Positions 5,689 through 36,884 of a DNA stretch of 64,000 bases are shown here, in pieces. Position 1 is the first letter of the stretch. Each line of letters opens with the position of its first letter. Location: the IMG/VR virus record IMGVR_UViG_3300045988_174170. The stretch is one strand, 5' to 3'. The translations under genes were made by a program, and so were the position numbers. The notes under the pieces are model-generated. The model had not been told where the DNA came from. It did no database searches and was given only the letters and a program-made list of their open reading frames with translations. The stretch is from a virus.

Positions 5689-7332
5689 CTAGAAACTAAA
5701 AACAGATTCCGTATTCTCAAACACGCCACCTTCAGGACGTTCCAACCTGTAAGCAACAATACGGTCAGAAACCCCCTCCTCAGTAGCCCACTTATTCACG
5801 CGGCGAACCATAGTGTCCGATGTGCACAACCAAACCACCTTACTGAACACTGAACGGTCATCACGGTACTGCTCCAAAATCTCAACCAGCTTACCCCTAG
5901 ACTTAGAGGAACCACGCTCAACCTCAACCGCAATACTACGCGCCTCACCATTCTCACCACGCGGCAAAATAGCCACAATATCCGGCACATGGAAAGTCGC
6001 TGTAGAAGCCGCCGACAAAACAGCCCACATCCACTCATTACCACCAAAACACTCAGGGCCAACACCACTACCACCACCAGCACGCCACTCACGCAAAATC
6101 CTAGCACGCTCAGCAATCAGATAATCACGCATCTCAAGCGCATTATTACCCCTCAAAAGACCCTGCAAAGAACCATTAATCTGACGGTCAGACACAACGT
6201 TAAACCCACGAAGAGCAGAACCACCTGAAGAACGACCACCCCAAACACCAGTACCAAGATTCAATACGTCAGTAGACCCGCACCACAACAAGGCACCAAC
6301 ATATGTAACAAGAACCCTATGCGGAAACTCCATATTGCCCAAAGATGAACGCTTAAACGCGCCGCCACCAACACCAAACTCATCAAGCCCAACACGAGTA
6401 CCCACCCAAACACGGTGACCACCAGCACCCGCAACATCAACAGCCTCAATACAGCCCCTAGACTGCAAACCCTTCAAATACTTCAAAGCCGTAACACGAG
6501 TAGACACACCAAGCAAAAGCATAGTAGCCCTAACATCAACCCAACCAAAAATACCGATAAAGCTCATAATCTCAACCTCACGGCGAACACCCATAAGGCG
6601 AGGACGAACACCACCATCAGCACGCTCCTTAGAACGCAAACGCTTCACCCTAGCCTCAACAACATCAGGCGACTCGCCAACCAGCGGCGGCGACACAACA
6701 TCAACACCACCAACACGACTCAACCAATAAGAAGACTGCTCAACAGCCAAAACATTAGAAACTTCAACAGACGACATAACGCCGCCCCTCCCATCATAAT
6801 CAAACCTAAAAGAAGACAAATCAGAAACACCAACACCAACAGGTAACCCCAAAGAACCAGAACCGGAACCAGGCGGCGCAACAAGACCACCCAAAACCAA
6901 ATCCTCAACCCCCGCAGACTCACCCAAAGCACGGGCACCAACACCACCAACAGGAACCCTAAACCCATCAGCAACAGCGTTCAAATCAACCGAACCACCA
7001 AAAGACCAACGAGCACGCGGCGTAACACCAAATGAAAAACCACCATGAGTAAACACAGAACCAGACCAGCCCGACACAGAGGCATCCCACACATAACCCG
7101 AACATTCAGATTCAAACGACCTAAACGGCTTAGGAATATCCGAAAAATCCCTCACACCAACACCACGCTCAAGAACCGACGTGCCACCATGAGGCCAAAC
7201 AAACCCCTCCGTCACATGAGACAAACCAACACCAGAAGGGAACGCCCCCGGCAACAAGCCAGCACCAACACCAGCAATAGCACCAATAACAGGCTTAGAA
7301 ACAGCAGAACCAGCCAAAACCAGAACCTCCAA
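5689..7332 (-). CDS. replication-relaxation (Replic_Relax)-like winged-helix protein with ~260-aa Gly-rich N-terminal extension
   Basis: The C-terminal half 'REVEIMSFIGIFGWVDVRATMLLLGVSTRVTALKYLKGLQSRGCIEAV ... HVPDIVAILPRGENGEARSIAVEVERGSSKSRGKLVEILEQYRD' matches the architecture of plasmid replication-relaxation family proteins, recalled from memory. TTG start, so the start is uncertain. Confidence 0.5.
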   Translation of the reverse strand: MEVLVLAGSAVSKPVIGAIAGVGAGLLPGAFPSGVGLSHVTEGFVWPHGGTSVLERGVGVRDFSDIPKPFRSFESECSGYVWDASVSGWSGSVFTHGGFSFGVTPRARWSFGGSVDLNAVADGFRVPVGGVGARALGESAGVEDLVLGGLVAPPGSGSGSLGLPVGVGVSDLSSFRFDYDGRGGVMSSVEVSNVLAVEQSSYWLSRVGGVDVVSPPLVGESPDVVEARVKRLRSKERADGGVRPRLMGVRREVEIMSFIGIFGWVDVRATMLLLGVSTRVTALKYLKGLQSRGCIEAVDVAGAGGHRVWVGTRVGLDEFGVGGGAFKRSSLGNMEFPHRVLVTYVGALLWCGSTDVLNLGTGVWGGRSSGGSALRGFNVVSDRQINGSLQGLLRGNNALEMRDYLIAERARILREWRAGGGSGVGPECFGGNEWMWAVLSAASTATFHVPDIVAILPRGENGEARSIAVEVERGSSKSRGKLVEILEQYRDDRSVFSKVVWLCTSDTMVRRVNKWATEEGVSDRIVAYRLERPEGGVFENTESVFSF

Positions 7333-7417
7333 AAAGAATCAACAAAAACAAGGTATAAAACAGGCGCAACCCCGCAAAATCAGAGCCGCGCCCACCACCA
7401 ACATAGCGGCAAATAAA

Positions 7418-7437
7418 AAAGTGTGCTACAATTATAA
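7418..7437. promoter_or_regulatory. back-to-back overlapping divergent extended -10 promoters (TGCTACAAT on + / TGTTATAAT on -)
   Basis: gtgTGCTACAATtataacagta. The + strand element feeds 7478 and its reverse complement TGTTATAAT feeds 5689..7332. Confidence 0.4.
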
Positions 7438-7477
7438 CAGTACTTGGTAAACCCCTACAGATAAGGACACCCAACAA

Positions 7478-7669
7478 GTGAACACCCCAACCAACGGCAA
7501 GAACTACCTCAACGGCAAGCTCATTGAAAACCCCATCGGATACCTCTTCGGAGCGGATTATGCAGAGACGCTAGATGAAGACACTAAAGCCTACATGGAA
7601 TACCTTGTTAAGGAGTTTGATAGTTGGGACGAAGAAGCAAAGAATAGCAACACCGAAAGCGAACAGTAA
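7478..7669 (+). CDS. hypothetical protein (GTG start)
   Basis: 63-aa ORF with AAGGA 12 nt upstream. Confidence 0.45.
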   Translation: MNTPTNGKNYLNGKLIENPIGYLFGADYAETLDEDTKAYMEYLVKEFDSWDEEAKNSNTESEQ

Positions 7670-7671
7670 CA

Positions 7672-7986
7672 ATGTTTAGCCAACAGGAATATTATCCCAT
7701 CCTGGCACTAACACTAGAAACCCGTGTACGTAGACCAATGGGCGGAGGCCCACAGTTGGCACGTATGCTAGTCGTACACTTCGTAGACGCTGAGAATAAC
7801 CCCTGCTACAAAACCTATGGATACTCAGGGATGAGCCCAGAATACGACCTGCCCACTGTAAAAATTGTCTTCAAAAACACCGACACCCCCTACCTTGTTA
7901 AGGCGGGGAATAATGGGCGTGACGAAATCCAGCTAAGCAAAGACCATTGGAAAAATATCCATACCGGTAACGTAAGCCTAATCTAA
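7672..7986 (+). CDS. hypothetical protein
   Basis: 104-aa ORF tightly packed after the previous gene. Confidence 0.5.
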   Translation: MFSQQEYYPILALTLETRVRRPMGGGPQLARMLVVHFVDAENNPCYKTYGYSGMSPEYDLPTVKIVFKNTDTPYLVKAGNNGRDEIQLSKDHWKNIHTGNVSLI

Positions 7987-8017
7987 CCCACCCCTAAGAC
8001 AGAAAGATATTCAAAAC

Positions 8018-8284
8018 ATGAATAACTACACCGTCATCAAAATCCAGTTTGAAACCATCGTAACCGAAAGAACCACATCATACAATACACAGAGCGCAAC
8101 CCGCGTACATTACCTGCAAACCGACGGTACAGTAGCGTCAGTTCGGTACGACCCCGGCGAGCTGAAGATGGTTCTTGACCAGCACGAAGGTAAACTACCC
8201 TACCTCACCGACGATAATGTACTACACGTACACCCGGAACACCTGAAAGACATTCAGACTTCCGTCATCAGGTACTTTAAGTAA
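8018..8284 (+). CDS. hypothetical protein
   Basis: 88-aa ORF, followed by a 17-bp perfect GC hairpin at 8311..8361. Confidence 0.5.
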   Translation: MNNYTVIKIQFETIVTERTTSYNTQSATRVHYLQTDGTVASVRYDPGELKMVLDQHEGKLPYLTDDNVLHVHPEHLKDIQTSVIRYFK

Positions 8285-8394
8285 ACCTGCAAACCAAACC
8301 CGCTAAGAAACGCCCCGGCGGGGCGGCATAAACCACCCCAAACCATGCCGCCCCGCCGGGGTGCACAAGCACTACAGAATAGGAAAACCAACCC

Positions 8395-9186
8395 ATGCTG
8401 AATAACCTTGAGCCCGGCGACATCATCATCACCGATGACCACTTCTATAAAGTCACCCGCACAATGCGCACCCTACGAGGTGTCCTCACCTCAATGCACA
8501 TCCTCGGCAAGGAAGGCGCGGAACAGTATATTAATGCAGAAGGTGGGTACCCCATTGAGCTTATCGGCGGCTTTGACCACATCAAGAAGTCGGAAAATGT
8601 AGATATTGAAGAGTTGTTCGATATGGAACGCGGACGGGATGAACTCATTGAAGGATACACCAAAATTCAAACCCTACTGCCGGGAGCTTACAAGCCCGCC
8701 CAGCCGTCTAAAGCTAACAACCCCAACAGCACCTCATGGATGCTCAACCACCCCGACAAGCTGACCCTAAGCCTACACCCAGCTAAGTGTGAAGAAGAGC
8801 TGGAAAAGATAAAGAGCCTACTAGAAGAAGCGGAACGCAAGCTTCATGATGCGGCATGTGATATTCGAGAGGGGCGCAAAAAGTATGCCGCCAAATACAC
8901 GGAGGTAGCAATCGAGAACGCCACCTATCTAGAAACCGAAGAACACCGCAAGAAGTTCTGCAAAGCAATCAAAGAGGCATACCACGAAAGCTTCCCCTGG
9001 GAAAACCAGCCTTTCAACATCGCCTACCCCCGAATCTACAGCACATCATTCCCTGAAAAATTGCACGCGAAACTTCAGGAAAACGTGTACAACACACACC
9101 AGGAAATTATTAAATCACTACTAGTAATCGAATACCTCGACACCCTAGCGGAAACCCTATACGGTGAACCCAATAAAAAGGGTTAA
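8395..9186 (+). CDS. hypothetical protein with N-terminal 'PGDIIIT' motif
   Basis: 263 aa. The motif LEPGDIIITDD is shared with 16024, 32636 and 42749. RBS AGGAAAA. Confidence 0.6.
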   Translation: MLNNLEPGDIIITDDHFYKVTRTMRTLRGVLTSMHILGKEGAEQYINAEGGYPIELIGGFDHIKKSENVDIEELFDMERGRDELIEGYTKIQTLLPGAYKPAQPSKANNPNSTSWMLNHPDKLTLSLHPAKCEEELEKIKSLLEEAERKLHDAACDIREGRKKYAAKYTEVAIENATYLETEEHRKKFCKAIKEAYHESFPWENQPFNIAYPRIYSTSFPEKLHAKLQENVYNTHQEIIKSLLVIEYLDTLAETLYGEPNKKG

Positions 9187-9234
9187 ACCCTAAAACAAAT
9201 AACCCAACAGGTGCACCCCACCAAGGAGTAAAAC

Positions 9235-9786
9235 ATGACAAAACCCAAGAGCCTATCTTACGGAAACATCAACAACCGCTACATCTTTCACAACTCGTTT
9301 GATACCCCCAGTAGGTACTACTGGACAGCCGATAAAATCGCTAAGCGCGAGAATGAACTCCGCAAAGCAGGCTGGGTAGCACTCCCAGGAACCTTCACCC
9401 TAGACGACCCACAGCGAGAAATCGTTGAGGTTAAACCGGGTACTGAAACCACCAAACACCTAGTGCACCTCATCAGGTTCCTTGCGGGCAAGCACAAGAG
9501 GGAAACTGGCACCCCCTACAAAATGTACGCGCACCTCAATGTATCGGTAAACACCAAAGATGAAGACGGCATTGGTGTAGTCGAAATCAATACCACCTTC
9601 ACTAGTGACCCCGAAGGTAAACACAAGATTGGTGTATCAATGACCACCTGCCTAGATGAACCTTGGGAACTCAGTACTGAAGAATGGCTCAAGATGGACG
9701 GTAAAACCTACCCCATCGGAACCCCTATCTGGAGCGACTGGCACAAAGACATCGAAATCCTAATCAACCCCAAACAAGGTAAATAA
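9235..9786 (+). CDS. hypothetical protein, paralog family C
   Basis: 183 aa, about 55% identical by eye to 10875..11441 (GWVALPG.FTLD.PQR.IV..KPG.ET.KHL.HL..F.AGKH...TGTPY.MYAHLNV). Confidence 0.7.
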   Translation: MTKPKSLSYGNINNRYIFHNSFDTPSRYYWTADKIAKRENELRKAGWVALPGTFTLDDPQREIVEVKPGTETTKHLVHLIRFLAGKHKRETGTPYKMYAHLNVSVNTKDEDGIGVVEINTTFTSDPEGKHKIGVSMTTCLDEPWELSTEEWLKMDGKTYPIGTPIWSDWHKDIEILINPKQGK

Positions 9787-9890
9787 CCCCATAACATAAC
9801 GGCAAAGGGCGCCCCTGAACAATCAGTAAAAGGGGTGCCCTAAACGCCACACTAAACCACCAACACCAAAAACACGGAGAGTAAAACACC

Positions 9891-10790
9891 ATGCGAATCC
9901 CCCTAGCACCCCACACCCTAACCGTAGGCGAAGCCTTCATCCTACAAAACAACAACGAAAAATCCCTATACAAAGTAACCCACACCGAAGGCAACACCAT
10001 CACCGCCGAACGCAAACACACCACCAACAGTGAAACAGCACCCCAAACCATCACCGGAACCCTACTCAACGGAACCCTAACCACCACCACACCAGTACAC
10101 AACACCCGAACACCCAAAATCATCGACCTCAACACCACCAAAACCAACACCATAAAAGCCACCACCAACAAACCCGAATACACCATCATCAGCAAGAACA
10201 CCAACGAAGACATCAACATCTGGCAAACCATCGAAACAATCACACCAGACGTAACCCTAGTACAATCACAAACCACCCCCACCCAAAAACGCATACACCT
10301 AACACCCCAACTACAAAAAGAAATCAACACAAACACCACCAACCTAACCCCCACACACACATTCTACCTAAACAACAACAACACAGAATGTGTACCCCAC
10401 GACGCGGCAAAAGCCCTAAAAACCATCATCAACCACCCCCACTGGAACGCCCTAAAACAAAAAGCAGTCAAGAATAATGACTGGGAAACCACCCTAACCA
10501 CCGACTACCTAACCGACACATACTGGGAACAAATCAGCACCGACTACAGTGACGGCTACGCATGGGGAGTCTCCTACGACCTCATCATCGACTACACCAT
10601 CGACTACGCAGAAGAGCTAAAACACCTCACCAACAGCACCGACCCCCAAACCCCAAACAGCAAAAACCTAACACCCAAACAACAAAAACAACTCACCACA
10701 ATGCTGAACAACGTCATCAAAAAACTCGAACAATCCGAATGGTACGAACCCGACCCCGAAGACTACACCATCATCCCCTACATCGAATAG
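9891..10790 (+). CDS. Thr/Asn/Pro-rich low-complexity protein with structured acidic C-terminal domain
   Basis: 299 aa, GGAGAG RBS, flanked by the family-C paralogs. Its C-terminus (DWETTLTTDYLTDTYWEQISTDYSDGYAWGVSYDLIIDY) is non-repetitive. Confidence 0.5.
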   Translation: MRIPLAPHTLTVGEAFILQNNNEKSLYKVTHTEGNTITAERKHTTNSETAPQTITGTLLNGTLTTTTPVHNTRTPKIIDLNTTKTNTIKATTNKPEYTIISKNTNEDINIWQTIETITPDVTLVQSQTTPTQKRIHLTPQLQKEINTNTTNLTPTHTFYLNNNNTECVPHDAAKALKTIINHPHWNALKQKAVKNNDWETTLTTDYLTDTYWEQISTDYSDGYAWGVSYDLIIDYTIDYAEELKHLTNSTDPQTPNSKNLTPKQQKQLTTMLNNVIKKLEQSEWYEPDPEDYTIIPYIE

Positions 10791-10874
10791 TTTGCATACC
10801 CCTAGCCGGTGTGGTAACCTATACCTACAGGTGCCACACCGGTACCCCAAAACACGCAACCAAGGAAATCAAAA

Positions 10875-11441
10875 ATGAAGTCTTACGAAGATGACATCCT
10901 AAACGGGTATATGTTCTGGGATGACGATAAATGGAATTACAAGGCGAAGATGGTTACTGAAGCTGAAGGCTACCCCTGTGTGGAGCACGCTATCATGTGG
11001 GACAACAGGTTCCGCAAATCAGGCTGGGTAGCACTCCCAGGAGCCTTCACCCTAGACGAACCCCAACGAAAAATCGTCAAAGCTAAACCGGGTCAAGAAA
11101 CAGCTAAGCATCTGATGCACCTCATGGCGTTCCACGCAGGCAAGCACCAGAAAGCAACCGGCACCCCCTACAATATGTACGCGCACCTCAACGTATGGGT
11201 GAACTCCGGTGACGAAGACGACCCCCACGAAATCGGAATTGACGCAACATTTACCAACGACCCCGAAGGTAAAAACCCGGCAGGTGCTTCAATGGCAACC
11301 TACCTAGCAGGTGACTGGGGTGGGCTAACCATGAAAGAATGGCTCAAGCTAGACGGTAAAACCTACCCCGTAGGTTGCCCCATCTGGACAGACTGGGGCA
11401 ACCGAATCGAAATCCTCATCCACCCAAAACGGGGTAAGTAA
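10875..11441 (+). CDS. hypothetical protein, paralog family C
   Basis: 188 aa, paralog of 9235..9786. Confidence 0.7.
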   Translation: MKSYEDDILNGYMFWDDDKWNYKAKMVTEAEGYPCVEHAIMWDNRFRKSGWVALPGAFTLDEPQRKIVKAKPGQETAKHLMHLMAFHAGKHQKATGTPYNMYAHLNVWVNSGDEDDPHEIGIDATFTNDPEGKNPAGASMATYLAGDWGGLTMKEWLKLDGKTYPVGCPIWTDWGNRIEILIHPKRGK

Positions 11442-11455
11442 CCCCAACACAATAA

Positions 11456-11492
11456 GCCCCGGCAACCCAAACAAAACACAGGTTACCGGGGC
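11456..11492. terminator. GC hairpin terminator
   Basis: CCCCGGCAACC ... GGTTACCGGGG followed by CTTC. Confidence 0.45.
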
Positions 11493-11552
11493 TTCATGCT
11501 ACCTTTTCAATACAGAAATCGCGTATCCCGCACTAAGGAAGGAACACCCACC

Positions 11553-11777
11553 ATGAGCTTCTACCACACCAACTGTAGCTACGACCCTACCGATGCCATA
11601 GGCAACGACGACGAATGGAACCCAGGAGAACCAGACTGGCAAACCAACGAAGAAGAATGGGACTGGATAGCTTGGAGAAACAACATCGCCATGTCCGAGC
11701 CACCAGAACACGAATACGAAGACTACCCCAACAGTCCATATGAAAGCGTCTCTGTTGCACTTGAAAACAGGGAATAA
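11553..11777 (+). CDS. small acidic Trp-rich protein
   Basis: Track ORF 11496..11777. The ATG at 11553 has AAGGAAGG upstream. Confidence 0.5.
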   Translation: MSFYHTNCSYDPTDAIGNDDEWNPGEPDWQTNEEEWDWIAWRNNIAMSEPPEHEYEDYPNSPYESVSVALENRE

Positions 11778-11816
11778 GTAAACACCACCAACACCACGTC
11801 GCATATACAGCAAAAC

Positions 11817-11853
11817 CCCCGGCAACCCGCACACGCAGGAAACCGGGGGTTTA
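11817..11853. terminator. bidirectional terminator between convergent genes
   Basis: CCCCCGG-N20-CCGGGGG + TTT. Closely resembles the 11456 hairpin. Confidence 0.5.
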
Positions 11854-11904
11854 CTAACACCCAAAACACCAAACAAAACACCACACCAAACCAGACACTA
11901 AACC

Positions 11905-13422
11905 CTACAATAGGTCAGACACAACACCGGCAACATCCACCAAATCAACACCTAAGCCCGCAACCGGCGAACCCACCGGAACATCAACAACACCACCAAC
12001 AAACCCCTCGCCAACACCAGCAGAACCACCAAACAAACCAGCAGAACCACCACCACCATTCACAACACCAACCGGCGAACCATAACCCTCACTACCACCA
12101 ATAAAACCCAAACCCAAACCAGGCACAATATCAGAACCAGAACTAGAACCCGAACCAGAACCAGCAGAAATAGTACCTACAACATCACCCCAACAGGCAC
12201 GACCAACACCACCAACAACACTATCAACCCAATTACGGACAAGCCACCAACCGGCGAAACGACCCAAACCAGCAACCCTAGCCTCAACCGGCGAAACACC
12301 ACCCAAACCACCAACAGAACCAAACTCAACATCAGGCACATCAACCAATGCAACACCATCAACAGACCCAGACACACCAACCCCAACAGAACCCGCCACA
12401 TCAACAAAACCAGCAGGAGCCAAACGCGAACCAAACACCAAACCCCTATGTGTCACACCATCAACAACAACCTCAGACCCAACACCAACACCACCAGAAA
12501 CACCAACAACACCAGGAACAAAACCACCAGCACCCAAACCCGAAACACCCAAAACACCACGCCAACCAGAACCCCCACCACCAACAGACAAAACACCCAA
12601 AGAAGCCGAAGACAAACCCCAAGACACAGACAAACCACCAAAACCAGACACACCAGACACCACAGGAACACCCACCAAAGACACACCACCAGAACTACCA
12701 GAAACACCACTAGAAATACCCGAACCCACACCAACACTCAAAGGAAAACAACCCACCAAAGCATCACCAACACCACGCCAACCAGAACCCCCACCACCAA
12801 AAGGCAAAGCACCAAACCCCACAGACGAAACACTCAACCCCGAAAAATCACCAACAAAACCCTCCCACAAAGGAACACCAACACCACCAACAACAGACAA
12901 ACCACCACCAGAAACACACCCCAAAACACCACCACACTCCTCCACAAAAGACAAAGACACACCCTCAGACACAGACACCACACCACCACCAGAACACACA
13001 CCACCCACAGACACCAAAAACCCATCCCAAACACTAGAAACAGACCCGGACACACCAAAAGAATCAACAAAACCCACAGAAGCCTCATAGGGGCACTCAA
13101 ATACACTAGAGGTATAATCACCCACCCCAACACCAAAAGAACCCATAGAAGGCTCCACAGGGGGTGTAAAAGAATGACCATACCCCCACGCCTCCTCAAC
13201 ATTAGAAGCAATAAACCCCCTACCACTAACACCCCAAGCAGAAGACTGCCAACCACACTGCACAAAACCAGGCATAGTCAAACCACTAGCAGACGGGGGA
13301 TTATGACCAACAGGGGTATAAAGTACACCACCATCAGGTAGCGTATCACCTATCGGCGGGGCTGTTAGAGTGCCAGGAACCCACGTCTCAACAACACCAA
13401 TAACAGTGCTATCTACAGCCAT
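11905..13422 (-). CDS. Gly/Val/Ser-rich 505-aa protein with internal repeat GGGGSGWRGV
   Basis: Track ORF 11905..13443 (TTG). The ATG at 13422 is preceded by GGGAAAGGG. The non-repetitive N-terminal 100 aa and the terminator at its 3' end support this strand over the mirror-image + strand Thr/Asn ORF. Confidence 0.5.
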   Translation of the reverse strand: MAVDSTVIGVVETWVPGTLTAPPIGDTLPDGGVLYTPVGHNPPSASGLTMPGFVQCGWQSSAWGVSGRGFIASNVEEAWGYGHSFTPPVEPSMGSFGVGVGDYTSSVFECPYEASVGFVDSFGVSGSVSSVWDGFLVSVGGVCSGGGVVSVSEGVSLSFVEECGGVLGCVSGGGLSVVGGVGVPLWEGFVGDFSGLSVSSVGFGALPFGGGGSGWRGVGDALVGCFPLSVGVGSGISSGVSGSSGGVSLVGVPVVSGVSGFGGLSVSWGLSSASLGVLSVGGGGSGWRGVLGVSGLGAGGFVPGVVGVSGGVGVGSEVVVDGVTHRGLVFGSRLAPAGFVDVAGSVGVGVSGSVDGVALVDVPDVEFGSVGGLGGVSPVEARVAGLGRFAGWWLVRNWVDSVVGGVGRACWGDVVGTISAGSGSGSSSGSDIVPGLGLGFIGGSEGYGSPVGVVNGGGGSAGLFGGSAGVGEGFVGGVVDVPVGSPVAGLGVDLVDVAGVVSDLL

Positions 13423-13475
13423 ACTTAAAGCCCTTTCCCGCAATCACAAAAGTGTGACATAAACATAATTTTAGT

Positions 13476-14360
13476 GTGTTATATCTTCTACAAAATTCCG
13501 AGCGGAACACAACCCCCAGAACAGCAATCAAAAAAAATACCCATAGCAAAGGGCTAATAAAAGACGACCCCCAGCACAAAACCCGAATAAAAATAACAAA
13601 AATTTTCCAACACGCCACACCCACCAAAAAACACAAACCACCAAACCCAAAAAACAAGCGCCCATCACACCACCATGATAAACGCCACAACAAACGGGTA
13701 ACACGCAACACAACAGTACACAGCACACATACAGAACACAGAGAAGAACATACACAGCCACACAGGATACATACATACAGGAGAGCGCACACAGGCAGAC
13801 ACATATAGATACATGCAGACAATATACACAGACACACAATAGACACATAAGAGTAACAGGCACACAAGCAACAGACCCAAGGAGAACAACACACAAGACA
13901 CACACAACAGACACATACAGGGGAACAACACATAAGACACAGAACAAAGAAGACCACAAACACAGACACAATAGACACACAAGAGACAAAACACAGGAAC
14001 ACAAGAACACAACAAGGGCACAGGGGAACAGAGGGAACAAAAGCTAGACAGAACACACCAACAACACAGCTAGACAGAAACAACACAACAGACACACAAT
14101 AGACACACAGAGAACAGCTAGACAGAACACACGGGGGGTAACACACGGAACAGAGTAAAGGTAAAGAAGGCTAGACAGGGCACGGGGTAATAAGGGGTAG
14201 AAGAAGGGCGGGTAGAAGGGGAAGGAAAGGGGGGCGGGAAAGAGGAAGCGAAGGGTGGAAGGTAGAGCGGGGTGGTAGTAGGTGGGGTGGTGGTGTTTAT
14301 TCTCTGTTTTGTTTTGTTTTTTGGGGTGGTTTTTCTTGTTTTTGGCTGTTTTTTGGGGGT
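13476..14360. repeat. non-coding low-complexity tract graded CA-rich to GA-rich to GT-rich, with iteron-like direct repeats
   Basis: Three copies of CACAATAGACACA(T/C)A(A/G)GAG at about 13836, 13967 and 14096 with ~130-bp spacing. Four copies of GCTAGACAG at about 14043, 14069, 14117 and 14170. Purine-only GA stretch 14160..14280, GT-only stretch 14280..14420. Confidence 0.7.
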
Positions 14361-14376
14361 GTTTTTTGGTATAATG

Positions 14377-14386
14377 GTTTTGGGTG
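14377..14386 (+). promoter_or_regulatory. extended -10 promoter TGGTATAATG
   Basis: Consensus TGnTATAAT, rightward. Confidence 0.4.
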
Positions 14387-14557
14387 GTTTTTTTGGTATC
14401 TAGCCCTGTGTGGAAAGTAGCCTTTTGCCTTGTCAGGGCGTTATGCACTGTGGTGCATTTTCTTCATTTTTGGGGTCTATAATCAACCTGTAGGGGTTGT
14501 TTTTGGGTTGGTGGGGCACCTTACTCCTGTTTAGGGTATGTGGGTGGGGTTATTTTA

Positions 14558-14565
14558 GGTATAAT
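14558..14565 (+). promoter_or_regulatory. extended -10 promoter (a)GGTATAAT(g) upstream of 14607
   Basis: Second copy of GGTATAATG, 40 nt before the start codon. Confidence 0.4.
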
Positions 14566-14606
14566 GTGGGTTATGTACTGTTCAATTGACGGCTGGAGGC
14601 GTATCT

Positions 14607-14816
14607 GTGTTTGCTACGACTGGTGAGATTCTTTACGTGTTTTTCAGTGGCGCGTTGTTCACTTGTTTTGGGGCTTGGTTCTTTTGGAGGGCGGGTGATA
14701 AGAAGCTTATTTCGCGTGATGGGGTGCATATGGCGTGCTTGTTTTTAGTTCCGGGTGTTCTGTCTATTGTGGTGGCATTGCCAGTTGTTCTGAGGTTAAT
14801 GTTTGGTTGGTCATAA
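14607..14816 (+). CDS. small membrane protein
   Basis: Track ORF 14586 (TTG). The GTG at 14607 has GGAGG 7 nt upstream. Two TM segments. Confidence 0.4.
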   Translation: MFATTGEILYVFFSGALFTCFGAWFFWRAGDKKLISRDGVHMACLFLVPGVLSIVVALPVVLRLMFGWS

Positions 14817-15098
14817 TAAGTAGGAACGCGAGCGCCTAACTGTGAAGGAAGAAGTACCCATCGGGGCGGCTACAGGAACCACCGAAAGCATCGAAGCCGA
14901 AGGCAGTAAAGTACCTGAACCTACCGAAGTAACCGGTAGTATTCTTAGCGACGGAGAACGCGCTGAACTCAAAGAGGCTGAAGAGGCACCGGGTGCACTC
15001 AATGACTAGCCATATAGTTGTTACTGTCGTGTAACGCCTAGACGCAGTTCAGGTCACCCCCCCGCGAGCGCTTACTAGTTGCTTGTACGTGTATTGAA

Positions 15099-15141
15099 CA
15101 CCCCCTAGTGGTTATCCGCCGCTAGGGGGGGGTCTTTTTTT
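15099..15141 (+). terminator. rho-independent terminator
   Basis: CCCCCTAGTGGTTATCCGCCGCTAGGGGGGGG followed by TCTTTTTTT. Confidence 0.6.
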
Positions 15142-15250
15142 GGGGGGGGTGTTGCTTGTGTCTATATGTGCTGTCTGTGTCGCCTGTGGTAGGATGGGGG
15201 TATCTTATTGTTAGTATTGCGGGGGTGTACCCTGAGAGGATTTGATGTTT

Positions 15251-15424
15251 ATGATTGAGCCGTATGTGTCGTTGGTTTGGTGGGCTGTTGGTTGCCTTGT
15301 GGTTGCGGTGGCGTTTGAGGTGGTGGCTTTTAGGTGTGCGTCTGTTGGGCGGCGTTCTTGGTGTGGTTGGTTCTTCAGGCTGGGTTACAGTTTCGGTGGT
15401 TGAGCATAAGCGCCCTGGTAGGGA
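15251..15424 (+). CDS. 57-aa membrane peptide
   Basis: The ATG has GAGAGGA 10 nt upstream. The same 'GGA(A/G)GGATTTGnTnTTT-ATG' context recurs at 16024. Below the track size cut-off. Confidence 0.3.
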
Positions 15425-15656
15425 TAGTGCCTCTGAGATTCGTACTGCTTACACGTGGAGCGAGGTGCGCGGCAATGAGACTGTCGCTAAGACTACTACT
15501 GTTGAGCAGGATGACGTTTCGGTAGTTGAAGACGTTGCGGCGGGTGGCACGCCGTGGGTTGAGTACATTCCCATGTATCATCTTGTGCCTGCTGGCATTT
15601 TTGATGGTTCGCACGCTGACCCGGTTCAGGGTAAGCTCTGTGTTCGGGGGGCGTGA
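15255..15656 (+). CDS. hypothetical protein (alternative frame, TTG start; true start unclear)
   Basis: The C-terminal 85 aa are non-repetitive (VEHKRPGRDSASEIRTAYTWSEVRGNETVAK...), but there is no convincing RBS. Confidence 0.25.
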   Translation: MSRMCRWFGGLLVALWLRWRLRWWLLGVRLLGGVLGVVGSSGWVTVSVVEHKRPGRDSASEIRTAYTWSEVRGNETVAKTTTVEQDDVSVVEDVAAGGTPWVEYIPMYHLVPAGIFDGSHADPVQGKLCVRGA

Positions 15657-16023
15657 TACTGACTGTAAGGTGAACGCATTGCGGGCGAACATGAAGTATG
15701 TGCTACATGTCCCGGCGAGCGCCTAATAGTCAATGAACTATCACGCTAGAGGTGGCGTCAAGTTCCGGCGGGTAAGCGCCTCTAGTCGCACCCTAGTTGC
15801 TCAGCGGTAGCCCGTAGTGCCCACGCTCAGCTTTTGACTTAATGTGGGTACTACGGGCTTTTCTGTGCCCTCCTGTAACCTTTCAAGGATTCGGGTATTG
15901 TGGTTACCCGTGTCCGGCGCGTACTGTACATGGCGGCTTGTCTATGGTAGGATAGGTGTATCTTATATTGTTGTTACCCCCTGTTGGTTAGGGGGTGTGT
16001 TCTTTTGGAAGGATTTGTTTTTC

Positions 16024-17127
16024 ATGTCTGTTGTGTCTGTTTGCCCTGGTGATGTTGTGTCTACTGGTGTGGGTGTTCTGCATGTGGGGTCTGTTATTGT
16101 GGAGCGTTCGCGTGAGGGTGAGTCTTTTGCTGTGTCTGGTGTTACTGGTGATGGTGTGGTACGTGCGGGTGTTCCTGTCACTGATGATGTGGTTCCGTTG
16201 GCTGTTGATGCGTCTGATGCTGAGGCGTTGGTGTGGTTTGACCGTGAGCGTTATTTGAAGCGTTTGAGTGAGGCTGTGTTTTGTCCGGGTGATGGGTTTG
16301 CGGCTTTGGGTAGGTGTATGTCTGAGTGGGTGGATTTGTCTTTGTCTGACCGTGAATCGGTTGATGCTGTTCTTGAGCGTCTGGTCAAGGTTGATGCTGG
16401 TCTTGTTTGGGATTACCAGTGGGTTGTTAGGAAGCGTGCTGAGTGCTTGGAGGCGTTTGAGGATTTTCATGCGGGTTGGTTGAAGTATCAGAGTAAGCCT
16501 TGGAGTGAGCCGGTTTTGGGTGAATGTCGTAAGATTGATGCCCATAAGGTTGTTGGTGGTGTTGAGCTTAGGGTTGGTGGTATCTATCAGTTCCGGCGTG
16601 CTGATGCGCCTGTAGAGGGCGGGTATGAGTACTTTAAGGTTGTTAGTAGTAACTATAACCCTGAGATTATTCTTTATGGTGCGTCTACTAGGGTGAATGG
16701 TTGTTCGGGTGTTATTATTAGCAGTAATGGGGGTTTTGTTTCTTACGCTAACCTGCGGGCTAAAGTGGGTGATGAGCTGTTTTGGATTGATGCGGATACT
16801 GTGAAGCTTCTACCTATTGGCTCTCTTAATGATATTGACTCTTACCTTGAGTTGAGCGAGTATGCGGACGTTTCTCTTTCTGAGGCATTGCAGGGGATTT
16901 TCCTTGACATGTTCAGTGCCGATGAAGGTAAGCCTAAGTGCCTACCTGTTCGTGAGGAACTTGATGATGACCGCTACTGTTGGGATGATGATTATGCTAA
17001 GTGTCGTGGTGTGCTGATGTCTGCTACTGCTGACCTGCTGTTCGATATTGAGAAGAGCCTTGGGCATGTCCGGTGGGTGCGTGACCAGCTGAAAGTCTTC
17101 TACCGCGAACTAGGGTTCACCTTCTAG
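16024..17127 (+). CDS. hypothetical protein with N-terminal 'PGDVVST' motif
   Basis: Track ORF 15844. M61 (ATG 16024) has GGAAGGA 11 nt upstream. Motif CPGDVVSTG. Confidence 0.55.
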   Translation: MSVVSVCPGDVVSTGVGVLHVGSVIVERSREGESFAVSGVTGDGVVRAGVPVTDDVVPLAVDASDAEALVWFDRERYLKRLSEAVFCPGDGFAALGRCMSEWVDLSLSDRESVDAVLERLVKVDAGLVWDYQWVVRKRAECLEAFEDFHAGWLKYQSKPWSEPVLGECRKIDAHKVVGGVELRVGGIYQFRRADAPVEGGYEYFKVVSSNYNPEIILYGASTRVNGCSGVIISSNGGFVSYANLRAKVGDELFWIDADTVKLLPIGSLNDIDSYLELSEYADVSLSEALQGIFLDMFSADEGKPKCLPVREELDDDRYCWDDDYAKCRGVLMSATADLLFDIEKSLGHVRWVRDQLKVFYRELGFTF

Positions 17128-17296
17128 GGGCTAAGAGGGGTTAGTCTATGGAGTCTCTGACCAGGTTTAGGTAACCGCCTGTACTGGAAAGGTGGCACCC
17201 GTTTAGGTGTGTGCGTCTCAGTGGGTGCGGGTCTAAGTGGGTGTATTCCTTGGTGGGTGTGTTCCTTACTGGTGGTTGCCTGGATGGTTCACTGTG

Positions 17297-17340
17297 TGCG
17301 ATAATGGGTGCGAGTACCAACTCAAGTACTCGCACCCATT
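17297..17340 (+). promoter_or_regulatory. extended -10 promoter TGcGATAAT overlapped by a perfect 15-bp inverted repeat (operator-like)
   Basis: AATGGGTGCGAGTAC-caactcaa-GTACTCGCACCCATT starts inside the -10 element. Downstream lie GGAAGGAAGG and ATG 17374. Confidence 0.45.
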
Positions 17341-17373
17341 ATTTATTTCTTGTGGAAGGAAGGTGTACCTATC

Positions 17374-17715
17374 ATGGGTACTGTGCAGGATAGCCTGATT
17401 AGTAAGTTCGGTTGGGGTATCCGTGATTCGCTTGAAAGCTTTGAGGAAGCTGAGTGGAGCGAGGCGGTGGCGAACGCAGGCGTTTCCCCCGCTGAGGCAC
17501 GCCGCACGTTCATGGTTGGGCTGTTGCGAGAGATTGAGTCTCTAGTCAATAAGGCTAGGTATAGTGGTTCCATGTGGCGGCTACAGCACCTTGAGCGTAA
17601 AGTGAGCGAACTGATTGTTTCCAGGTTTGAGGAAGAAGAGAAGACGGTTCGTGGTCGTATCGACAAGTTGCGCGAAGCGCTAGAGACTGTAGTCGAAATC
17701 AACAGCCAGAAATAG
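17374..17715 (+). CDS. hypothetical protein
   Basis: Track ORF 17308. M23 is preceded by GGAAGGAAGG. 113 aa. Confidence 0.55.
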   Translation: MGTVQDSLISKFGWGIRDSLESFEEAEWSEAVANAGVSPAEARRTFMVGLLREIESLVNKARYSGSMWRLQHLERKVSELIVSRFEEEEKTVRGRIDKLREALETVVEINSQK

Positions 17716-17989
17716 TCATAAGTGCTTAACATTAGGCGAGAGAAGCCGCCATACGCCCTGTACCGCCCCTCTAAAGGGTCGCAAGTGCCTGTGGTGGCTC
17801 TTTCCTTTCTTAGGGGTGCGAGCGCCCACTGTGTCCACTGGTGGTGGTTCTGTTGCCGCCCGTGTGGTGCTAGTGGCTTAGTGCTAGTGAAAGCTTGTAT
17901 GAGCGCCTACGTGGTATCATTGGGGGTGGGATACCTTGAGGGTTCCCACCCTGTTTTGTTTACTGGCTTATTGAAAGGATGTGCCTGTT

Positions 17990-18406
17990 ATGGGTGTTGT
18001 TGGTTTTATAGATTTGTTTGCACCTTTCCGGTTCTTGATTGAATCCCCACCGTGGGTTTCATTCTTCGTACCCGGTCTTGTGCTTCCTGTGGCTTTGCTA
18101 GTTATTGGAGTTATTGCCACCGCTATTAACCCGGCACTTGGGTTTATTTCCGTGCTTTATGTCATGATTGCTTGGGTTGGTGGGGTTCCAATAACCTTGG
18201 CTGTGGTTCTTTATAACGCCGGGGTTCATGATAGTTTCCCTTTGGGTTTACTTGTGATACTAGGGTTCATGTCGAACACTGTTGTTGCGGCGACGGTGTT
18301 CGCGACTATCTGCTGGGTTCTTGAACGCTTTGTAGGTGAAGAGCCTGTAGAAGCTGTTGAGTCTGGACGGGTTAAGACCTACCCCCCATATGAGAAGACC
18401 TCTTAG
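17990..18406 (+). CDS. membrane protein related to family G (MFVDxxNxF...PxW..F.PG)
   Basis: Track ORF 17981 (GTG abutting the SD). The ATG at 17990 is 9 nt after GAAAGGA. 4 TM. N-terminus GFIDLFAPFRFLIESPPWVSFFVPG. Confidence 0.55.
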   Translation: MGVVGFIDLFAPFRFLIESPPWVSFFVPGLVLPVALLVIGVIATAINPALGFISVLYVMIAWVGGVPITLAVVLYNAGVHDSFPLGLLVILGFMSNTVVAATVFATICWVLERFVGEEPVEAVESGRVKTYPPYEKTS

Positions 18407-20124: not shown

Positions 20125-20565
20125 ATGTCACCCCGCACTGTTGATTCTGTGGTGAAGGATTTCCTAAAAATTGAATGGGATGCCACTCTAGTAAGCATGA
20201 CCGCTTACCCGCCTGGTGACTATGTAGAGCAACCTGTACGGGATAACATGGCTAGGTCACGCAATAAGGCAGAGGCTCTCGCTAAGGTTGCCGAACAGTC
20301 CGCTAAGTATCTTGAGATGGTTGCTAATGGGTCGAGTGGTGACCTTGAGGATTTGCTGATTTTTGCGAGCGCGCAGGTTTCTGTACTTCGTGAACAAATG
20401 GCTAGTATTTCTGACTTGGGGTACTACTCTGAGCATGTTGCAAGCAAGGCGGCACGCAAGACACTATCTGAAGTTGCTGAAAGGTACGCGCCTTATAGGA
20501 AGAATTGGGCTGAGCGGCGTGAGAGTAAGGGGCTTATTTTCAAGCAAAACCCTCATGTGAGCTAA
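20125..20565 (+). CDS. hypothetical protein
   Basis: 146 aa. Its stop codon overlaps the TGTGA of the next cassette. Confidence 0.65.
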   Translation: MSPRTVDSVVKDFLKIEWDATLVSMTAYPPGDYVEQPVRDNMARSRNKAEALAKVAEQSAKYLEMVANGSSGDLEDLLIFASAQVSVLREQMASISDLGYYSEHVASKAARKTLSEVAERYAPYRKNWAERRESKGLIFKQNPHVS

Positions 20566-20610
20566 TTCACACGGTTTTAACTTGCATGGGGGTTATTGTT
20601 GTGCCATAAT
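20556..20610 (+). promoter_or_regulatory. cassette promoter C1
   Basis: TGTGAgctaatTCACA, TTGCAT, 17-nt spacer, TGcCATAAT. Confidence 0.6.
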
Positions 20611-20677
20611 AGAAATGTAGCAAGGGGATAACTCCTAAAGCTACTTCCACTATCTACCTTATGAAAGGGTTTCCATC

Positions 20678-20923
20678 ATGGCACGTTTTAAGATTGCGAA
20701 TCACGAGCTGGCTATCGAAGCTATCAAGGAAGGCATGAAGCTTTACCCCAGCCTGATTTGCCGTGACCACTACAGCAAGCAGGGTCGCTTTACCGTATGG
20801 TGCGGCGAAGAACGTGGCACTGTTGATGTGAAGGTACTTGCAGATTACGAAAACTTCCAGGATGTTTTCGATACCCCCAAGGTCAATTGGGAAGAGGGTT
20901 ACATCACCATTAACAAGAAGTAG
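20678..20923 (+). CDS. hypothetical protein, paralog family B
   Basis: 81 aa, paralog of 36885..37202 (..WCGE.R....V......NWEEGY.T.). Confidence 0.75.
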   Translation: MARFKIANHELAIEAIKEGMKLYPSLICRDHYSKQGRFTVWCGEERGTVDVKVLADYENFQDVFDTPKVNWEEGYITINKK

Positions 20924-21008
20924 TACCTAGTGCCCCGTATCTAACCTAGCCGGGTTGGATACGGGGTTTTCTGTATCCCTATTGGTTGATGACGCATCTC
21001 AAATATAA

Positions 21009-21063
21009 TGTGACCTAATTCACACGTTTTTAACTTGCGCACCCTTAATGGTTGTGTCATAAT
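21009..21063 (+). promoter_or_regulatory. cassette promoter C2 (leader deleted)
   Basis: Perfect palindrome TGTGAcctaatTCACA, TTGCGC, TGtCATAAT. The ATG lies only 5 nt after the -10. Confidence 0.55.
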
Positions 21064-21068
21064 AGTTC

Positions 21069-21377
21069 ATGACTAACTACCGCATCTTTAACCTGGTCGA
21101 GGGCGCTACCCCCACCCTGGAAAGCATGGCAAAGGCACTGGTTGCCGCTGTAGAAAACGAGTGGTTCCGTGATAACACTCTCTGCGTAGATGATGTAAAG
21201 GTCGAAAACGACGCGCTTCTCTTCGAGATTGACGGCTCGCACTTCAAGGCTGTAATTTCCGGTCGAGAAATCCACCTGTACGCCCGCAATGACGAAAGCG
21301 AGCTGGGTACCGACGGCGCAACCCAGTTCATTAAGACCATGAACCGCATCGGTTGCACTAAGGAATACATCTACTAA
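21069..21377 (+). CDS. hypothetical protein, probably translated from a leaderless mRNA
   Basis: ATG at 21069 lies 5 nt downstream of the -10 (CATAATagttcATG). No SD is possible. 102 aa. Confidence 0.6.
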   Translation: MTNYRIFNLVEGATPTLESMAKALVAAVENEWFRDNTLCVDDVKVENDALLFEIDGSHFKAVISGREIHLYARNDESELGTDGATQFIKTMNRIGCTKEYIY

Positions 21378-22323: not shown

Positions 22324-22423
22324 GGGCTTTACCTAGACCACGAACCGCTCGATAGATTGATAGAGCCCTAGAGACGCTAAAGCCTGTAGATAAAAGATAG
22401 TGGAACACGCCCCATAACCCCTA

Positions 22424-22478
22424 TGTGAGCTATTTCACGTGATTCTGGCTTGCATAGGGGTTAGGGGTGTGTCATAAT
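22424..22478 (+). promoter_or_regulatory. cassette promoter C3
   Basis: TGTGAgctattTCACg, TTGCAT, 17-nt spacer, TGtCATAAT. Confidence 0.6.
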
Positions 22479-22546
22479 AGAAGTACAGCAAGGAGGGAAG
22501 CCCCTAGCAATGAATCCACTATCTACCTACCGAAAGGTTACCAACC

Positions 22547-22891: not shown

Positions 22892-23117
22892 CCACCCCAT
22901 AGGGGAAACCCTATGACTAACACCCCGCCCTAGCGTAAGACATGCAGGGCGGGGTGTTACTGTACCCCTATAGACCGGGGCACCTGTATAATTAGGCGTG
23001 TTTGGCTTTGAGAGTTGCACGCCCCCGGTCAAGCCTGACATAATGGCTTACATAGGCGCTAGAAAACCCGCCTAGCCACACAATCCACCATTTCCCGCCT
23101 GAAAGGAAATAAATACC

Positions 23118-23989: not shown

Positions 23990-24044
23990 TGTGACCTATT
24001 TCACATGATTTAGATTTGCAAAGGGGTTAGGGGTGTGTCATAAT
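23990..24044 (+). promoter_or_regulatory. cassette promoter C4
   Basis: TGTGAcctattTCACA, TTGCAA, TGtCATAAT. Confidence 0.6.
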
Positions 24045-24104
24045 AGAAGTGTACCGAGGGGTTAGCCCCTCAAACAGTCCACTATCTACCGAAAGGTGCT
24101 AATC

Positions 24105-24464: not shown

Positions 24465-24527
24465 GCCCCTTATAATGCACCCCCGCTAGAGCTTTCCTAG
24501 CGGGGGTGCATCCAGCTCTAAATATAA

Positions 24528-24582
24528 TGTGACACAATTCATATAGTTTAGACTTGCACACCCGGCTAGGGTGTGGCATAAT
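24528..24582 (+). promoter_or_regulatory. cassette promoter C5
   Basis: TGTGAcacaatTCAtA, TTGCAC, TGgCATAAT. Confidence 0.55.
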
Positions 24583-24650
24583 AGTTATATAAGCGATAGA
24601 GAAAACCTCTAGAACTAGTTCGTTATCTACCTACCGAAAGGCTGGATACT

Positions 24651-25106: not shown

Positions 25107-25172
25107 AGTTATATCAGGCGTTAGGGGAACCACCCTAGAGCCAATTCATTACCTACCGAAAGGCTAAATATA

Positions 25173-26310: not shown

Positions 26311-26378
26311 AGTTACATAAGCAAGGGAAAACCCCTACAGCTTAGTCCACTATCTACCGACCGAAAGAGGTTAGAACC

Positions 26379-27471: not shown

Positions 27472-27526
27472 TGTGAGCTAATTCACATGGTTTCAAGTTG
27501 CATACGCCGTTAGAGCGTGTCATAAT
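27472..27526 (+). promoter_or_regulatory. cassette promoter C8
   Basis: Perfect TGTGAgctaatTCACA, TTGCAT, TGtCATAAT. Confidence 0.6.
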
Positions 27527-27595
27527 AGTTATATAAGCAAGGGGGAAACCCTCTAGCAATAAGTTCACCATCTATCTACCGAAAGGTTGAATACT

Positions 27596-29340: not shown

Positions 29341-29413
29341 AGAAATGTAGCAAGGGGATAACCCCTAAAGCTACAGGTTTTGTTTATTGTTTCTCTACTG
29401 AGAGGTGTTTATC

Positions 29414-31590: not shown

Positions 31591-31613
31591 GGGAATATAC
31601 CCAATAACCCCTA

Positions 31614-31668
31614 TGTGAGCTATTTCATATGATTCTGGCTTGCATAGGGGTTATTGGTGTGTCATAAT
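31614..31668 (+). promoter_or_regulatory. cassette promoter C10
   Basis: TGTGAgctattTCAtA, TTGCAT, TGtCATAAT. Confidence 0.6.
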
Positions 31669-31731
31669 GGTTATATACAGAAGGGGTAACCCTTGAAGTT
31701 AGTTCCATTATTTACCGAAAGGGGCTTTATT

Positions 31732-33976: not shown

Positions 33977-34056
33977 AGAAGTGTAGCGAGGAAGTGATAG
34001 ATAACTTCCATAAGGCACTAAGCCCGCTACGATAGATTCCCTGAAAGGAATACCTA

Positions 34057-36761: not shown

Positions 36762-36817
36762 TGTGACCTATTTCATATTATTTTGACTTGCAACCCCATG
36801 CTCAGGTGTGCCATAAT
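36762..36817 (+). promoter_or_regulatory. cassette promoter C13
   Basis: TGTGAcctattTCAtA, TTGCAA, 18-nt spacer, TGcCATAAT. Confidence 0.55.
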
Positions 36818-36884
36818 AGAAGTACAGCAAGGGGAGAACCCCTAAAGCTACTTCTACCATCTACCTATTGAAAGGGTTTCAATT

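Follow-up and report, generated by a model that had tools for sequence, protein, structure and literature searches.

A family of promoter cassettes recurs along one 64,000-nucleotide stretch of viral DNA (IMG/VR record IMGVR_UViG_3300045988_174170, the whole of which is referred to here as the window), and its promoters are followed directly by a hairpin that holds a fixed position and whose pairing is kept across 83 distinct stem sequences. A hairpin of this kind is present in almost all of 204 distinct leaders from the window and from related metagenome contigs of 240-306 kb, and its likeliest role is that of a generic module for RNA stability or insulation, not of a novel type of regulator.

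Architecture of the promoter-leader cassette

The segment 20611-20650, which we use as the focal copy, adjoins the 3' side of a near-consensus sigma-70-type promoter. The transcription start was placed 7 nt downstream of the -10 element from promoter geometry alone, which puts it after the discriminator AGAAAT (20611-20616) at G20617, a purine preceded by T, as it is in all copies of the cassette. The features of the focal copy are:

20556-20571, + strand, CRP-like box TGTGAGCTAATTCACA, centred near -53.5 and overlapping the stop codon of the upstream ORF 20125-20565
20582-20610, + strand, promoter with -35 element TTGCAT (20582-20587), 17-nt spacer and extended -10 element TGCCATAAT (20602-20610)
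20617-20644, + strand, leader hairpin with outer stem GTAGC/GCTAC, inner stem AGGGG/CTCCT containing one G.U pair, and loop ATAA (20628-20631)
20643-20658, + strand, G-poor CU/CA-rich tract ACTTCCACTATCTACC, degenerate and unpaired by prediction
20663-20680, + strand, Shine-Dalgarno sequence GAAAGGG (20663-20669) and ATG (20678) of ORF 20678-20923 (81 codons)

The focal RNA is predicted to form a two-tier structure, GUAGC-A-AGGGG-AUAA-CUCCU-AAA-GCUAC, with an MFE of -11.7 kcal/mol and a z-score of -2.25. The gene at 20678-20923 is followed by a canonical terminator (20932-20967, a 16-bp stem then TTTTCTG), a feature that is rare between the other cassettes.

A repeat search combined with a pattern scan of the window identified 24 plus-strand cassettes of one design between 20.5 and 63.8 kb, and a related 25th promoter precedes a tRNA-Glu gene. 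The consensus order begins with an upstream C-rich arm, the palindrome TGTGA-N6-TCACA, approximately 10 nt of intervening sequence, TTGCAT and a 17-nt spacer that often reads AGGGGTTAGGGGTG, and continues with TGnCATAAT, AGTTAT or AGAAGT, the start, the hairpin, the G-poor tract, GAAAGG (beginning at +46 to +51 in most leaders) and ATG. The first-pass annotation had stated that each cassette carries a stem-loop directly after the -10 element; a convincing leader hairpin follows 22 of the 25 promoters in the window, two others being weak or ambiguous and one promoter lacking a leader entirely. Taken together, the leaders have an MFE far below that of shuffled sequences (see below). Beyond the focal copy, the leader hairpins are:

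22488-22508, + strand, leader hairpin, with the -10 element of its cassette at 22473-22478
23053-23074, + strand, leader hairpin TAGGCG/CGCCTA, loop of 10 nt
24056-24071, + strand, leader hairpin GAGGGG/CCCCTC
24592-24624, + strand, leader hairpin with inner stem TAGAG/CTCTA
25117-25142, + strand, leader hairpin GGC-TTAGGG/CCCTAG-GCC
26318-26344, + strand, leader hairpin TAAGC-AGGG/CCCT-GCTTA
27537-27557, + strand, leader hairpin AGGGGG/CCCTCT
29347-29374, + strand, leader hairpin GTAGC-AGGGG/CCCCT-GCTAC
31681-31694, + strand, leader hairpin AAGGG/CCCTT, loop GTAA
32119-32143, + strand, leader hairpin
33983-34030, + strand, branched leader with outer stem GTAGCG/CGCTAC from +1 enclosing the hairpins GGAAGT/ACTTCC and GGC/GCC (-19.9 kcal/mol, z -4.3)
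36826-36849, + strand, leader hairpin
38985-38998, + strand, leader hairpin AGGGG/CCCCT
40069-40091, + strand, leader hairpin GCG-TAGAG/TTCTA-CGC
44076-44099, + strand, leader hairpin GTTAGGG/CCCTAAC
45489-45503, + strand, leader hairpin AGGGGT/ACCCCT
47476-47499, + strand, leader hairpin CGGGG/CCCCG
51673-51692, + strand, leader hairpin AGGG/CCCT
62492-62514, + strand, leader hairpin TGGTA-CCC/GGG-TACCA in a divergent leader
63634-63669, + strand, leader hairpin TAAGC...CGGGGTT/AGCCCCG...GCTTA
63762-63784, + strand, hairpin with which the tRNA-Glu precursor begins (promoter 63726-63754, tRNA 63794-63867), with two compensated pairs among orthologues

Two of the individual structures proposed earlier needed correction. 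The fold GGGT-aa-CCCT at 31685 would have an impossible 2-nt loop and is replaced by AAGGG-GUAA-CCCUU; at 47477 the stem CGGGG/CCCCG is as described, and its loop is AACCA instead of aaccac.

Several cassettes depart from the common design. In the cassette at 21035-21071 (+ strand) the whole leader of approximately 62 nt, comprising hairpin, G-poor tract and Shine-Dalgarno sequence, is cleanly missing, so that ATG 21069 sits 5 nt after CATAAT; eight relatives have the full leader before the same gene. This arrangement predicts a leaderless mRNA for the gene starting at ATG 21069. Two tandem cassette-type promoters lie upstream of the tRNA-Glu gene 63794-63867 (region 63598-63867): the first (63598-63626) is followed by a strong leader hairpin without an obvious ORF, and from the second (63726-63754) the tRNA precursor starts with its own covarying hairpin. 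Elsewhere, the 88-nt promoter-leader segments 36806-36893 and 38961-39048 are 91% identical into the first codons (ATGGCGCTG) of different genes, which suggests a recent duplication or conversion that extended beyond the start codon.

Upstream of the promoter, the palindrome TGTGA-N6-TCACA gave 21 matches in the window at up to one mismatch, compared with 1.8 expected by chance. This CRP-type palindrome occupies a fixed site 5' of the -35 element, at about -53.5 relative to the inferred start, in the focal cassette and approximately 19 others (for example 21009-21024, 23990-24005 and 27472-27487). Since both of its arms are conserved, without covariation, it suggests a candidate protein site, either for host CRP or for an encoded factor. 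A second, longer inverted repeat surrounds the CRP-like box and the -35 element, in which the upstream C-rich arm (-95 to -60) pairs with the promoter spacer region (-33 to -13) of each cassette, as at 22403-22474, 31593-31664 and 24490-24575. Its sequences differ between cassettes, and arms from the same cassette pair at -15.5 kcal/mol versus -12.1 for permuted arms (z approximately -12 to -13). Rfam returned weak miRNA-precursor-like matches at this repeat.

Relatives of the cassette-bearing element

A degenerate 21-nt pattern derived from the promoter and leader retrieved 65 metagenome loci. Contigs of 240-306 kb supply the majority of them, and alignment with the window shows 77-98% identity for most; a further 21-kb locus of a 257-kb contig bears the same cassettes. 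Related contigs include ERZ1674288.1 (306 kb), ERZ1674051.1 (304 kb) and QWBZ01000001 (291 kb). The relatives encode thymidylate synthase, RNA ligase, a TROVE protein, UvrD and TnpB. Megablast of 4-24 kb of sequence against phages (50,697 records), plasmids and E. coli genomes gave no match, nor did a search for the exact promoter 18-mer in viral contigs (IMG/VR). The single match to a genome contig (L001, from a Bacilli MAG) was rejected as a chance match within coding sequence. At the protein level, tblastn of two window proteins returned distant matches only, protein searches matched solely unnamed metagenome proteins, and the flotillin-like protein, the one window protein looked up in the contig index, was absent from it. 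Only six Pfam families were found among 70 plus-strand ORFs of the window, and almost all of these ORFs are ORFans. We treat the element as a putative uncultivated jumbo-phage-like genome of approximately 300 kb.

The gene content includes a type II/IV secretion-family ATPase at 3732-5288 (PF00437, E 1e-32), a weak DotD match in one small ORF among the plus-strand ORFs of 18.4-63.1 kb, and a flotillin/Band 7 protein at 54746-56314. This is unusual cargo for a phage and the phage assignment of the element is therefore provisional. The ATPase gene adjoins a region of extreme strand asymmetry (5700-18000), in which A and C make up nearly the whole plus strand between about 6 and 14 kb, with GC skew down to -0.5 and AT skew up to +0.7, and polarity flips at about 14 kb. 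ORFs of this region are either Gly/Val/Cys-rich or Thr/Asn/Pro-rich and have no Pfam match.

The leader set is more strongly folded than expected, at a fixed position

To evaluate the leaders as a set, we took 258 cassettes with 400 nt of downstream sequence from the window and the related loci, which yielded 204 unique 40-nt leaders and 69 orthologue groups. Across the unique leaders the mean MFE of +1 to +40 is -9.43 kcal/mol, compared with -5.47 for dinucleotide shuffles (standard deviation of set means 0.145), and control coding 40-mers of the same loci gave -6.9 and -5.9 kcal/mol. The 5' arm lies at +4 to +13 and the 3' arm at +16 to +28, and in 80% of 226 unique leaders the best simple hairpin begins 11-15 nt past the -10 hexamer. 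Single copies are often unremarkable (z-scores of -0.3 to -0.7 in three of eight tested); the folding signal is a property of the leader set and of its fixed position, not of single copies.

The hairpins have 4-10 pairs. Their 5' arm is always purine-rich (55% G) and their 3' arm pyrimidine-rich (53% C), and the A-rich loops (54% A, often GAAA, AAAAC or ATAA) comprise more than 40 sequences of 3-12 nt, the commonest of which, AAAAC, occurs in 15 of approximately 220 leaders (about 7%). Two comparisons addressed the strand. Folding is equally good on the minus and plus strands (-10.1 and -9.4), and G.U pairs are not in excess over A.C mismatches, which served as the test for selection on plus-strand RNA. 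As neither wobble statistics nor strand folding discriminates, we infer from the position just 3' of the promoter that the plus-strand RNA is the selected form.

The tract that follows the hairpin had been described as an invariant CU-rich sequence; it proved to be a degenerate G-poor spacer. The 16-mer ACTTCCACTATCTACC has only two exact copies in the window and 11 plus-strand copies within three mismatches, and among the relatives a 13-nt core of the tract is exact in 12% of leaders and within three mismatches in 55%. Over approximately 20 nt its composition is 9% G, 35% C, 31% A and 25% T, and its predicted probability of being unpaired is 0.67 versus 0.58 in shuffles, properties that would fit a ribosome-loading platform.

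Pairing is preserved while stem sequences vary

As the first-pass annotation had observed, the stem differs in sequence between copies and remains paired. When the 5' and 3' halves of leaders were recombined, own halves paired at -9.0 kcal/mol versus -5.8 for chimeras, and none of 300 permutations was as good (z -12.8). The same held for fixed coordinates (+1 to +15 against +16 to +32), where the halves are defined without use of structure: own halves gave -9.74 and permuted halves -6.95 kcal/mol (z -21).

The covariation analysis of aligned leaders that had been proposed at the outset gave counts above both shuffled and slid controls. In a gapless class of 25 leaders the pair-covariation count is 0.298, compared with 0.100 +/- 0.019 in shuffled alignments (0/500) and 0.03-0.14 in slid controls. 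A covariance-model alignment of 85 distinct leaders gave 0.206 versus 0.091 +/- 0.008 (0/500 shuffled), with double changes in seven of ten pairs and the inner four pairs formed in 96-99% of sequences. MAFFT alignments of non-orthologous leaders placed the 3' arms out of register and were left out of the pair counts, and subfamily structure and indels swamped the column-wise mutual information. Within orthologous alignments, the tRNA-leader hairpin shows two compensated pairs and no broken ones, and another orthologue group shows one compensated pair, with one of 24 cells unpaired. Among near-identical leaders there is one stepwise double compensation, and of the single changes, 33 preserve a pair and 37 disrupt one; rates of change among close relatives are 4.8% at paired and 5.6% at unpaired sites. 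The covariation is real but old.

Cassettes are exchanged between genes

Cassettes have been exchanged between genes, and orthologous genes frequently have leaders of different types. Of 48 orthologue groups with at least two members, 12 contain at least one pair whose leaders are less than 70% identical while the coding DNA stays approximately 83% identical, and nine identical 28-nt leader starts occur before non-orthologous genes. Homology blocks between related genomes break exactly at cassettes: the alignments of six loci (L009, L017, L018, L032, L037 and L061) end at 21067/21068 and those of four others (L010, L011, L059 and L063) at 35072. The recurrence of homology ends at the same cassette-associated positions fits recombination at cassettes. 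The leader itself is conserved, changing by 3-4.6% per comparison versus 12-16% upstream of the cassette, which is 3-4 times slower.

Because stepwise compensation is rare in near-identical leaders, the diversity of hairpins stems mainly from older divergence together with module exchange. Present-day diversity is mostly a reshuffling of an existing stock of hairpin modules, a process known from the promoter-early stem-loop (PeSL) cassettes of the T4-like phages RB49, phi1, PST and nt-1 (PMC2839356, PMC4122927). The compensatory changes reported in the first-pass annotation can thus be restated: covariation and matched arms across copies were borne out, and the changes are mostly those of whole-module exchange. 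Its further proposal, a structured 5'-RNA element under selection, is upheld at the family level, where structure at the start of the transcript is kept for pairing, and is not supported by the wobble and strand tests as far as selection on the plus-strand RNA is concerned.

The hairpin as a proposed stability module, and alternative explanations

Our best explanation, which we put forward tentatively, is that the hairpin is a sequence-independent 5'-proximal stability module in an optimised promoter-leader-ribosome binding site cassette. It would be transcribed as approximately +1/+5 to +25 of every RNA from the cassette and would act by shape, not sequence, its main job being to prolong the life of the transcript by making the first bases less accessible to host 5'-end-dependent decay, first to RppH and then to the 5'-monophosphate pocket of RNase E. 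As a secondary effect, the only G-rich stretch of the leader would be held in a closed local fold, which could leave the ribosome-loading tract single-stranded whatever gene follows.

RppH and RNase E require a single-stranded 5' end, and for this reason E. coli mRNAs with secondary structure there are more stable (reviewed with the ompA and papA work in PMC3997798). The 5' stem-loop of T7 gene 10, when placed before a ribosome binding site, raised expression 1.5- to 3-fold and stabilised the mRNA (PMC6146998). The freedom of 83 stems and more than 40 loops to vary fits a role for shape only, and the presence of a hairpin before a tRNA gene implies that this role concerns the transcript and not translation. 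The RNase E motif RNWUU is depleted approximately two-fold in the leaders (81 occurrences versus 144 +/- 12), a count drawn from related, non-independent sequences. On these three properties, a stability or processing element fits best of the functions listed in the first-pass annotation. The fixed position just after the inferred start, the set-level excess of folding, arms that match within a cassette, the covariation counts, the compensated pairs of orthologues, the slow change of the leader and the G-poor tract with its raised unpaired probability also count in favour of the inferred stabilising function. A specific site of the RegA/RegB or N type and an attenuator are both disfavoured for the reasons given below.

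Confidence in a stability module is kept low by the geometry of the 5' end and by the behaviour of RNase E. Counted from the inferred start, the MFE fold leaves at most four free 5' bases in 63% of the 204 unique leaders, which favours protection, and at least five in 36%, which does not. The stem begins at +1 or +2 in the window copies at 20617, 29347, 33983, 26318, 32119 and 63634; the typical leader has 3-4 free bases, no fewer than shuffled sequences, and the probability that +1 to +4 are unpaired (0.70) equals that of shuffles. As RppH requires only 2-3 free 5' bases (PMC3997798), protection would be marginal for many copies. Moreover, RNase E scanning is hardly hindered by a plain stem-loop within the 5' UTR (PMC11194081), on which ground we rejected a role as a scanning obstacle; the module would help only if it is truly terminal. 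The stability reading is further weakened by the near-equal numbers of pair-breaking and pair-keeping changes in close relatives, by the similar rates of change at their paired and unpaired sites, by the equal folding of the minus strand and by the window gene that has no leader. Two other candidates were set aside. A Shine-Dalgarno-like stabiliser (STAB-SD type) is rejected, as AAGGGG occurs in only about one-fifth of 5' arms, many arms are not Shine-Dalgarno-like and the sequence is sequestered in the stem; an attenuator-style switch was dropped because the leader arms pair only weakly (z -3 to -4) with the upstream arm or the promoter spacer.

A PeSL-type attenuator or barrier is unlikely; in it the G-tract/C-tract stem-loop would dampen read-through from the preceding cassette or stop a 3' exonuclease after cleavage, so that each gene would be expressed mainly from its own promoter. 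The whole cassette fits the PeSL description (sigma-70 promoter, polyG/polyC stem-loop, Shine-Dalgarno sequence and ATG, ORFan-rich surroundings and exchange; PMC2839356, PMC4122927), and the rarity of canonical terminators between cassettes means that read-through transcripts probably exist. However, the leader hairpin is not followed by a U-tract (of the 8 nt past the stem, 0-2 are T in 93% of copies and no copy has more than four), the terminator scan flagged no leader hairpin, and a hairpin located 3' of the cassette's own start would attenuate its own promoter too; the second, longer inverted repeat over the -35 element and spacer fits the PeSL stem-loop position better. An explanation without any RNA function takes the inverted repeat for a DNA-level feature of a recombining cassette, such as a recombination or template-switch hotspot or a hitch-hiker, whose uniformity gene conversion maintains. 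In PeSLs, crossovers have been located within a stem-loop (PMC2839356). Leaders swapped in 12 of 48 orthologue groups, identical leader starts before unrelated genes, homology blocks that break at cassettes, the equal folding of both strands with no excess of G.U over A.C, and the slight purifying signal on pairs in close relatives all speak for this explanation. Nevertheless, we regard it as unlikely, since gene conversion alone cannot yield 83 stems with matched arms at one fixed position and leaves the compensated pairs in orthologous alignments unexplained; furthermore, cruciform extrusion requires stems longer than 5-10 bp.

A specific site for an RNA-binding protein of the element or the host (an N/boxB-like antiterminator, a RegA-like repressor or a marker of own transcripts) would account for the constant position relative to the promoter, the A-rich loops, the purine-rich 5' and pyrimidine-rich 3' arms, and the conserved tract that follows in about half of the copies. 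Against it stand the multitude of loops and stems, the commonest loop being confined to about 7% of leaders, together with the absence of a boxA-like sequence from 224 leaders and of any Rfam family match. The sites number about 24 in 43 kb, every one of them has a promoter of its own and there are few terminators to overcome; moreover, the purine/pyrimidine polarity is the expected leftover of descent by transitions through G.U intermediates; we consider a protein site improbable. To a similar degree we doubt an early-elongation element, in which the nascent hairpin forms when RNA polymerase is near +35 to +42 and assists release from a very strong promoter, prevents backtracking or imposes a pause before the Shine-Dalgarno sequence emerges for ribosome coupling. 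Its distance from the -10 element is fixed more tightly than the 5'-end distance or the stem length, its occurrence on a non-translated tRNA precursor fits a role at the level of transcription, and the promoters are near-consensus with an extended -10 element. On the other hand, a consensus pause signal is not readable in the G-poor tract and the cited literature contains no comparable case for repeated phage cassettes. Finally, the hairpin and G-poor tract might together form a self-mark on probably more than 100 transcripts, read by an element-encoded factor that tells own from host RNAs; stem shape and position would then be recognised, examples being immunity to an element-encoded RNase or a cis-acting modifier of RNA polymerase or the ribosome. 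This is a long shot. On present evidence the cassettes do not point to a new class of RNA regulator.

Comparison with known systems

Comparison with characterised leader structures excluded three classes. The hairpin is not an intrinsic terminator, given the paucity of T residues after the stem. T7 early-type RNase III sites are irregular helices of about two turns (approximately 20 bp), and the leader hairpins have only 4-10 pairs. The lambda nut site resembles the leader in having a small 5-bp hairpin with a purine-rich loop shortly 3' of an early promoter; the leaders differ in that boxA (CGCUCUUA or the rrn-type GCUCUUUAACAA) was found in 0 of 224 within 1-2 mismatches, there is no conserved 5-bp stem with a GNRA-like pentaloop, loop length and sequence are not conserved, and the copies are far too many. 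Rfam matched only the tRNA at gathering score, and at E up to 1 in the 20.4-34.2 kb region it gave no match on leader hairpins.

The 5'-terminal stabilisers of ompA and papA (PMC3997798) are similar in placing a sequence-independent hairpin at the mRNA start, followed by an efficient ribosome binding site, and several copies here have a stem that begins at +1 or +2 of the inferred transcript. They differ in being single-gene elements with mapped 5' ends, whereas here the start is inferred and the typical copy has 3-4 free bases. In the ompA type the stem begins no more than about 2-4 nt from the RNA 5' end and extends mRNA half-life in dependence on RppH and RNase E. The T7 gene 10 leader found in expression vectors has a comparable layout, in which a 5' stem-loop comes directly after a phage promoter, then an enhancer region without structure and, last, a strong Shine-Dalgarno sequence; its stem-loop raises both expression and mRNA level (PMC6146998). 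T7, however, uses its own RNA polymerase and has few copies, whereas the present cassettes have host-type sigma-70 promoters, dozens of copies and many stem variants.

Like the cassettes described here, PeSLs are short intergenic repeats that combine a strong sigma-70-type promoter with a G-tract/C-tract stem-loop and end in a Shine-Dalgarno sequence and start codon; they are concentrated among ORFans and move between genes by recombination. The two are unrelated in sequence, and a T4-like context is not seen here. In PeSLs the stem-loop, interpreted as a terminator, is found between or over the -35 and -10 elements, 5' of them or immediately ahead of the start (PMC2839356); the present hairpin lies inside the transcribed leader (approximately +4 to +28) without a U-tract, and the PeSL position is instead occupied by the separate inverted repeat of -95 to -60 with -33 to -13. 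The cassette also adds a CRP-like box, that second long-range repeat and a conserved G-poor leader. The cassette hairpin is thus a variation on mobile promoter/stem-loop cassettes and on 5' leader hairpins, in an undescribed large element. Should the module work in the way suggested here, this element would show a natural, highly standardised cassette copied before dozens of unrelated small genes and even a tRNA. The PeSL notion of mobile regulatory cassettes would then hold outside T4-like phages too, and many natural stem variants would be available for testing the effects of 5' hairpins on RNA life and output.
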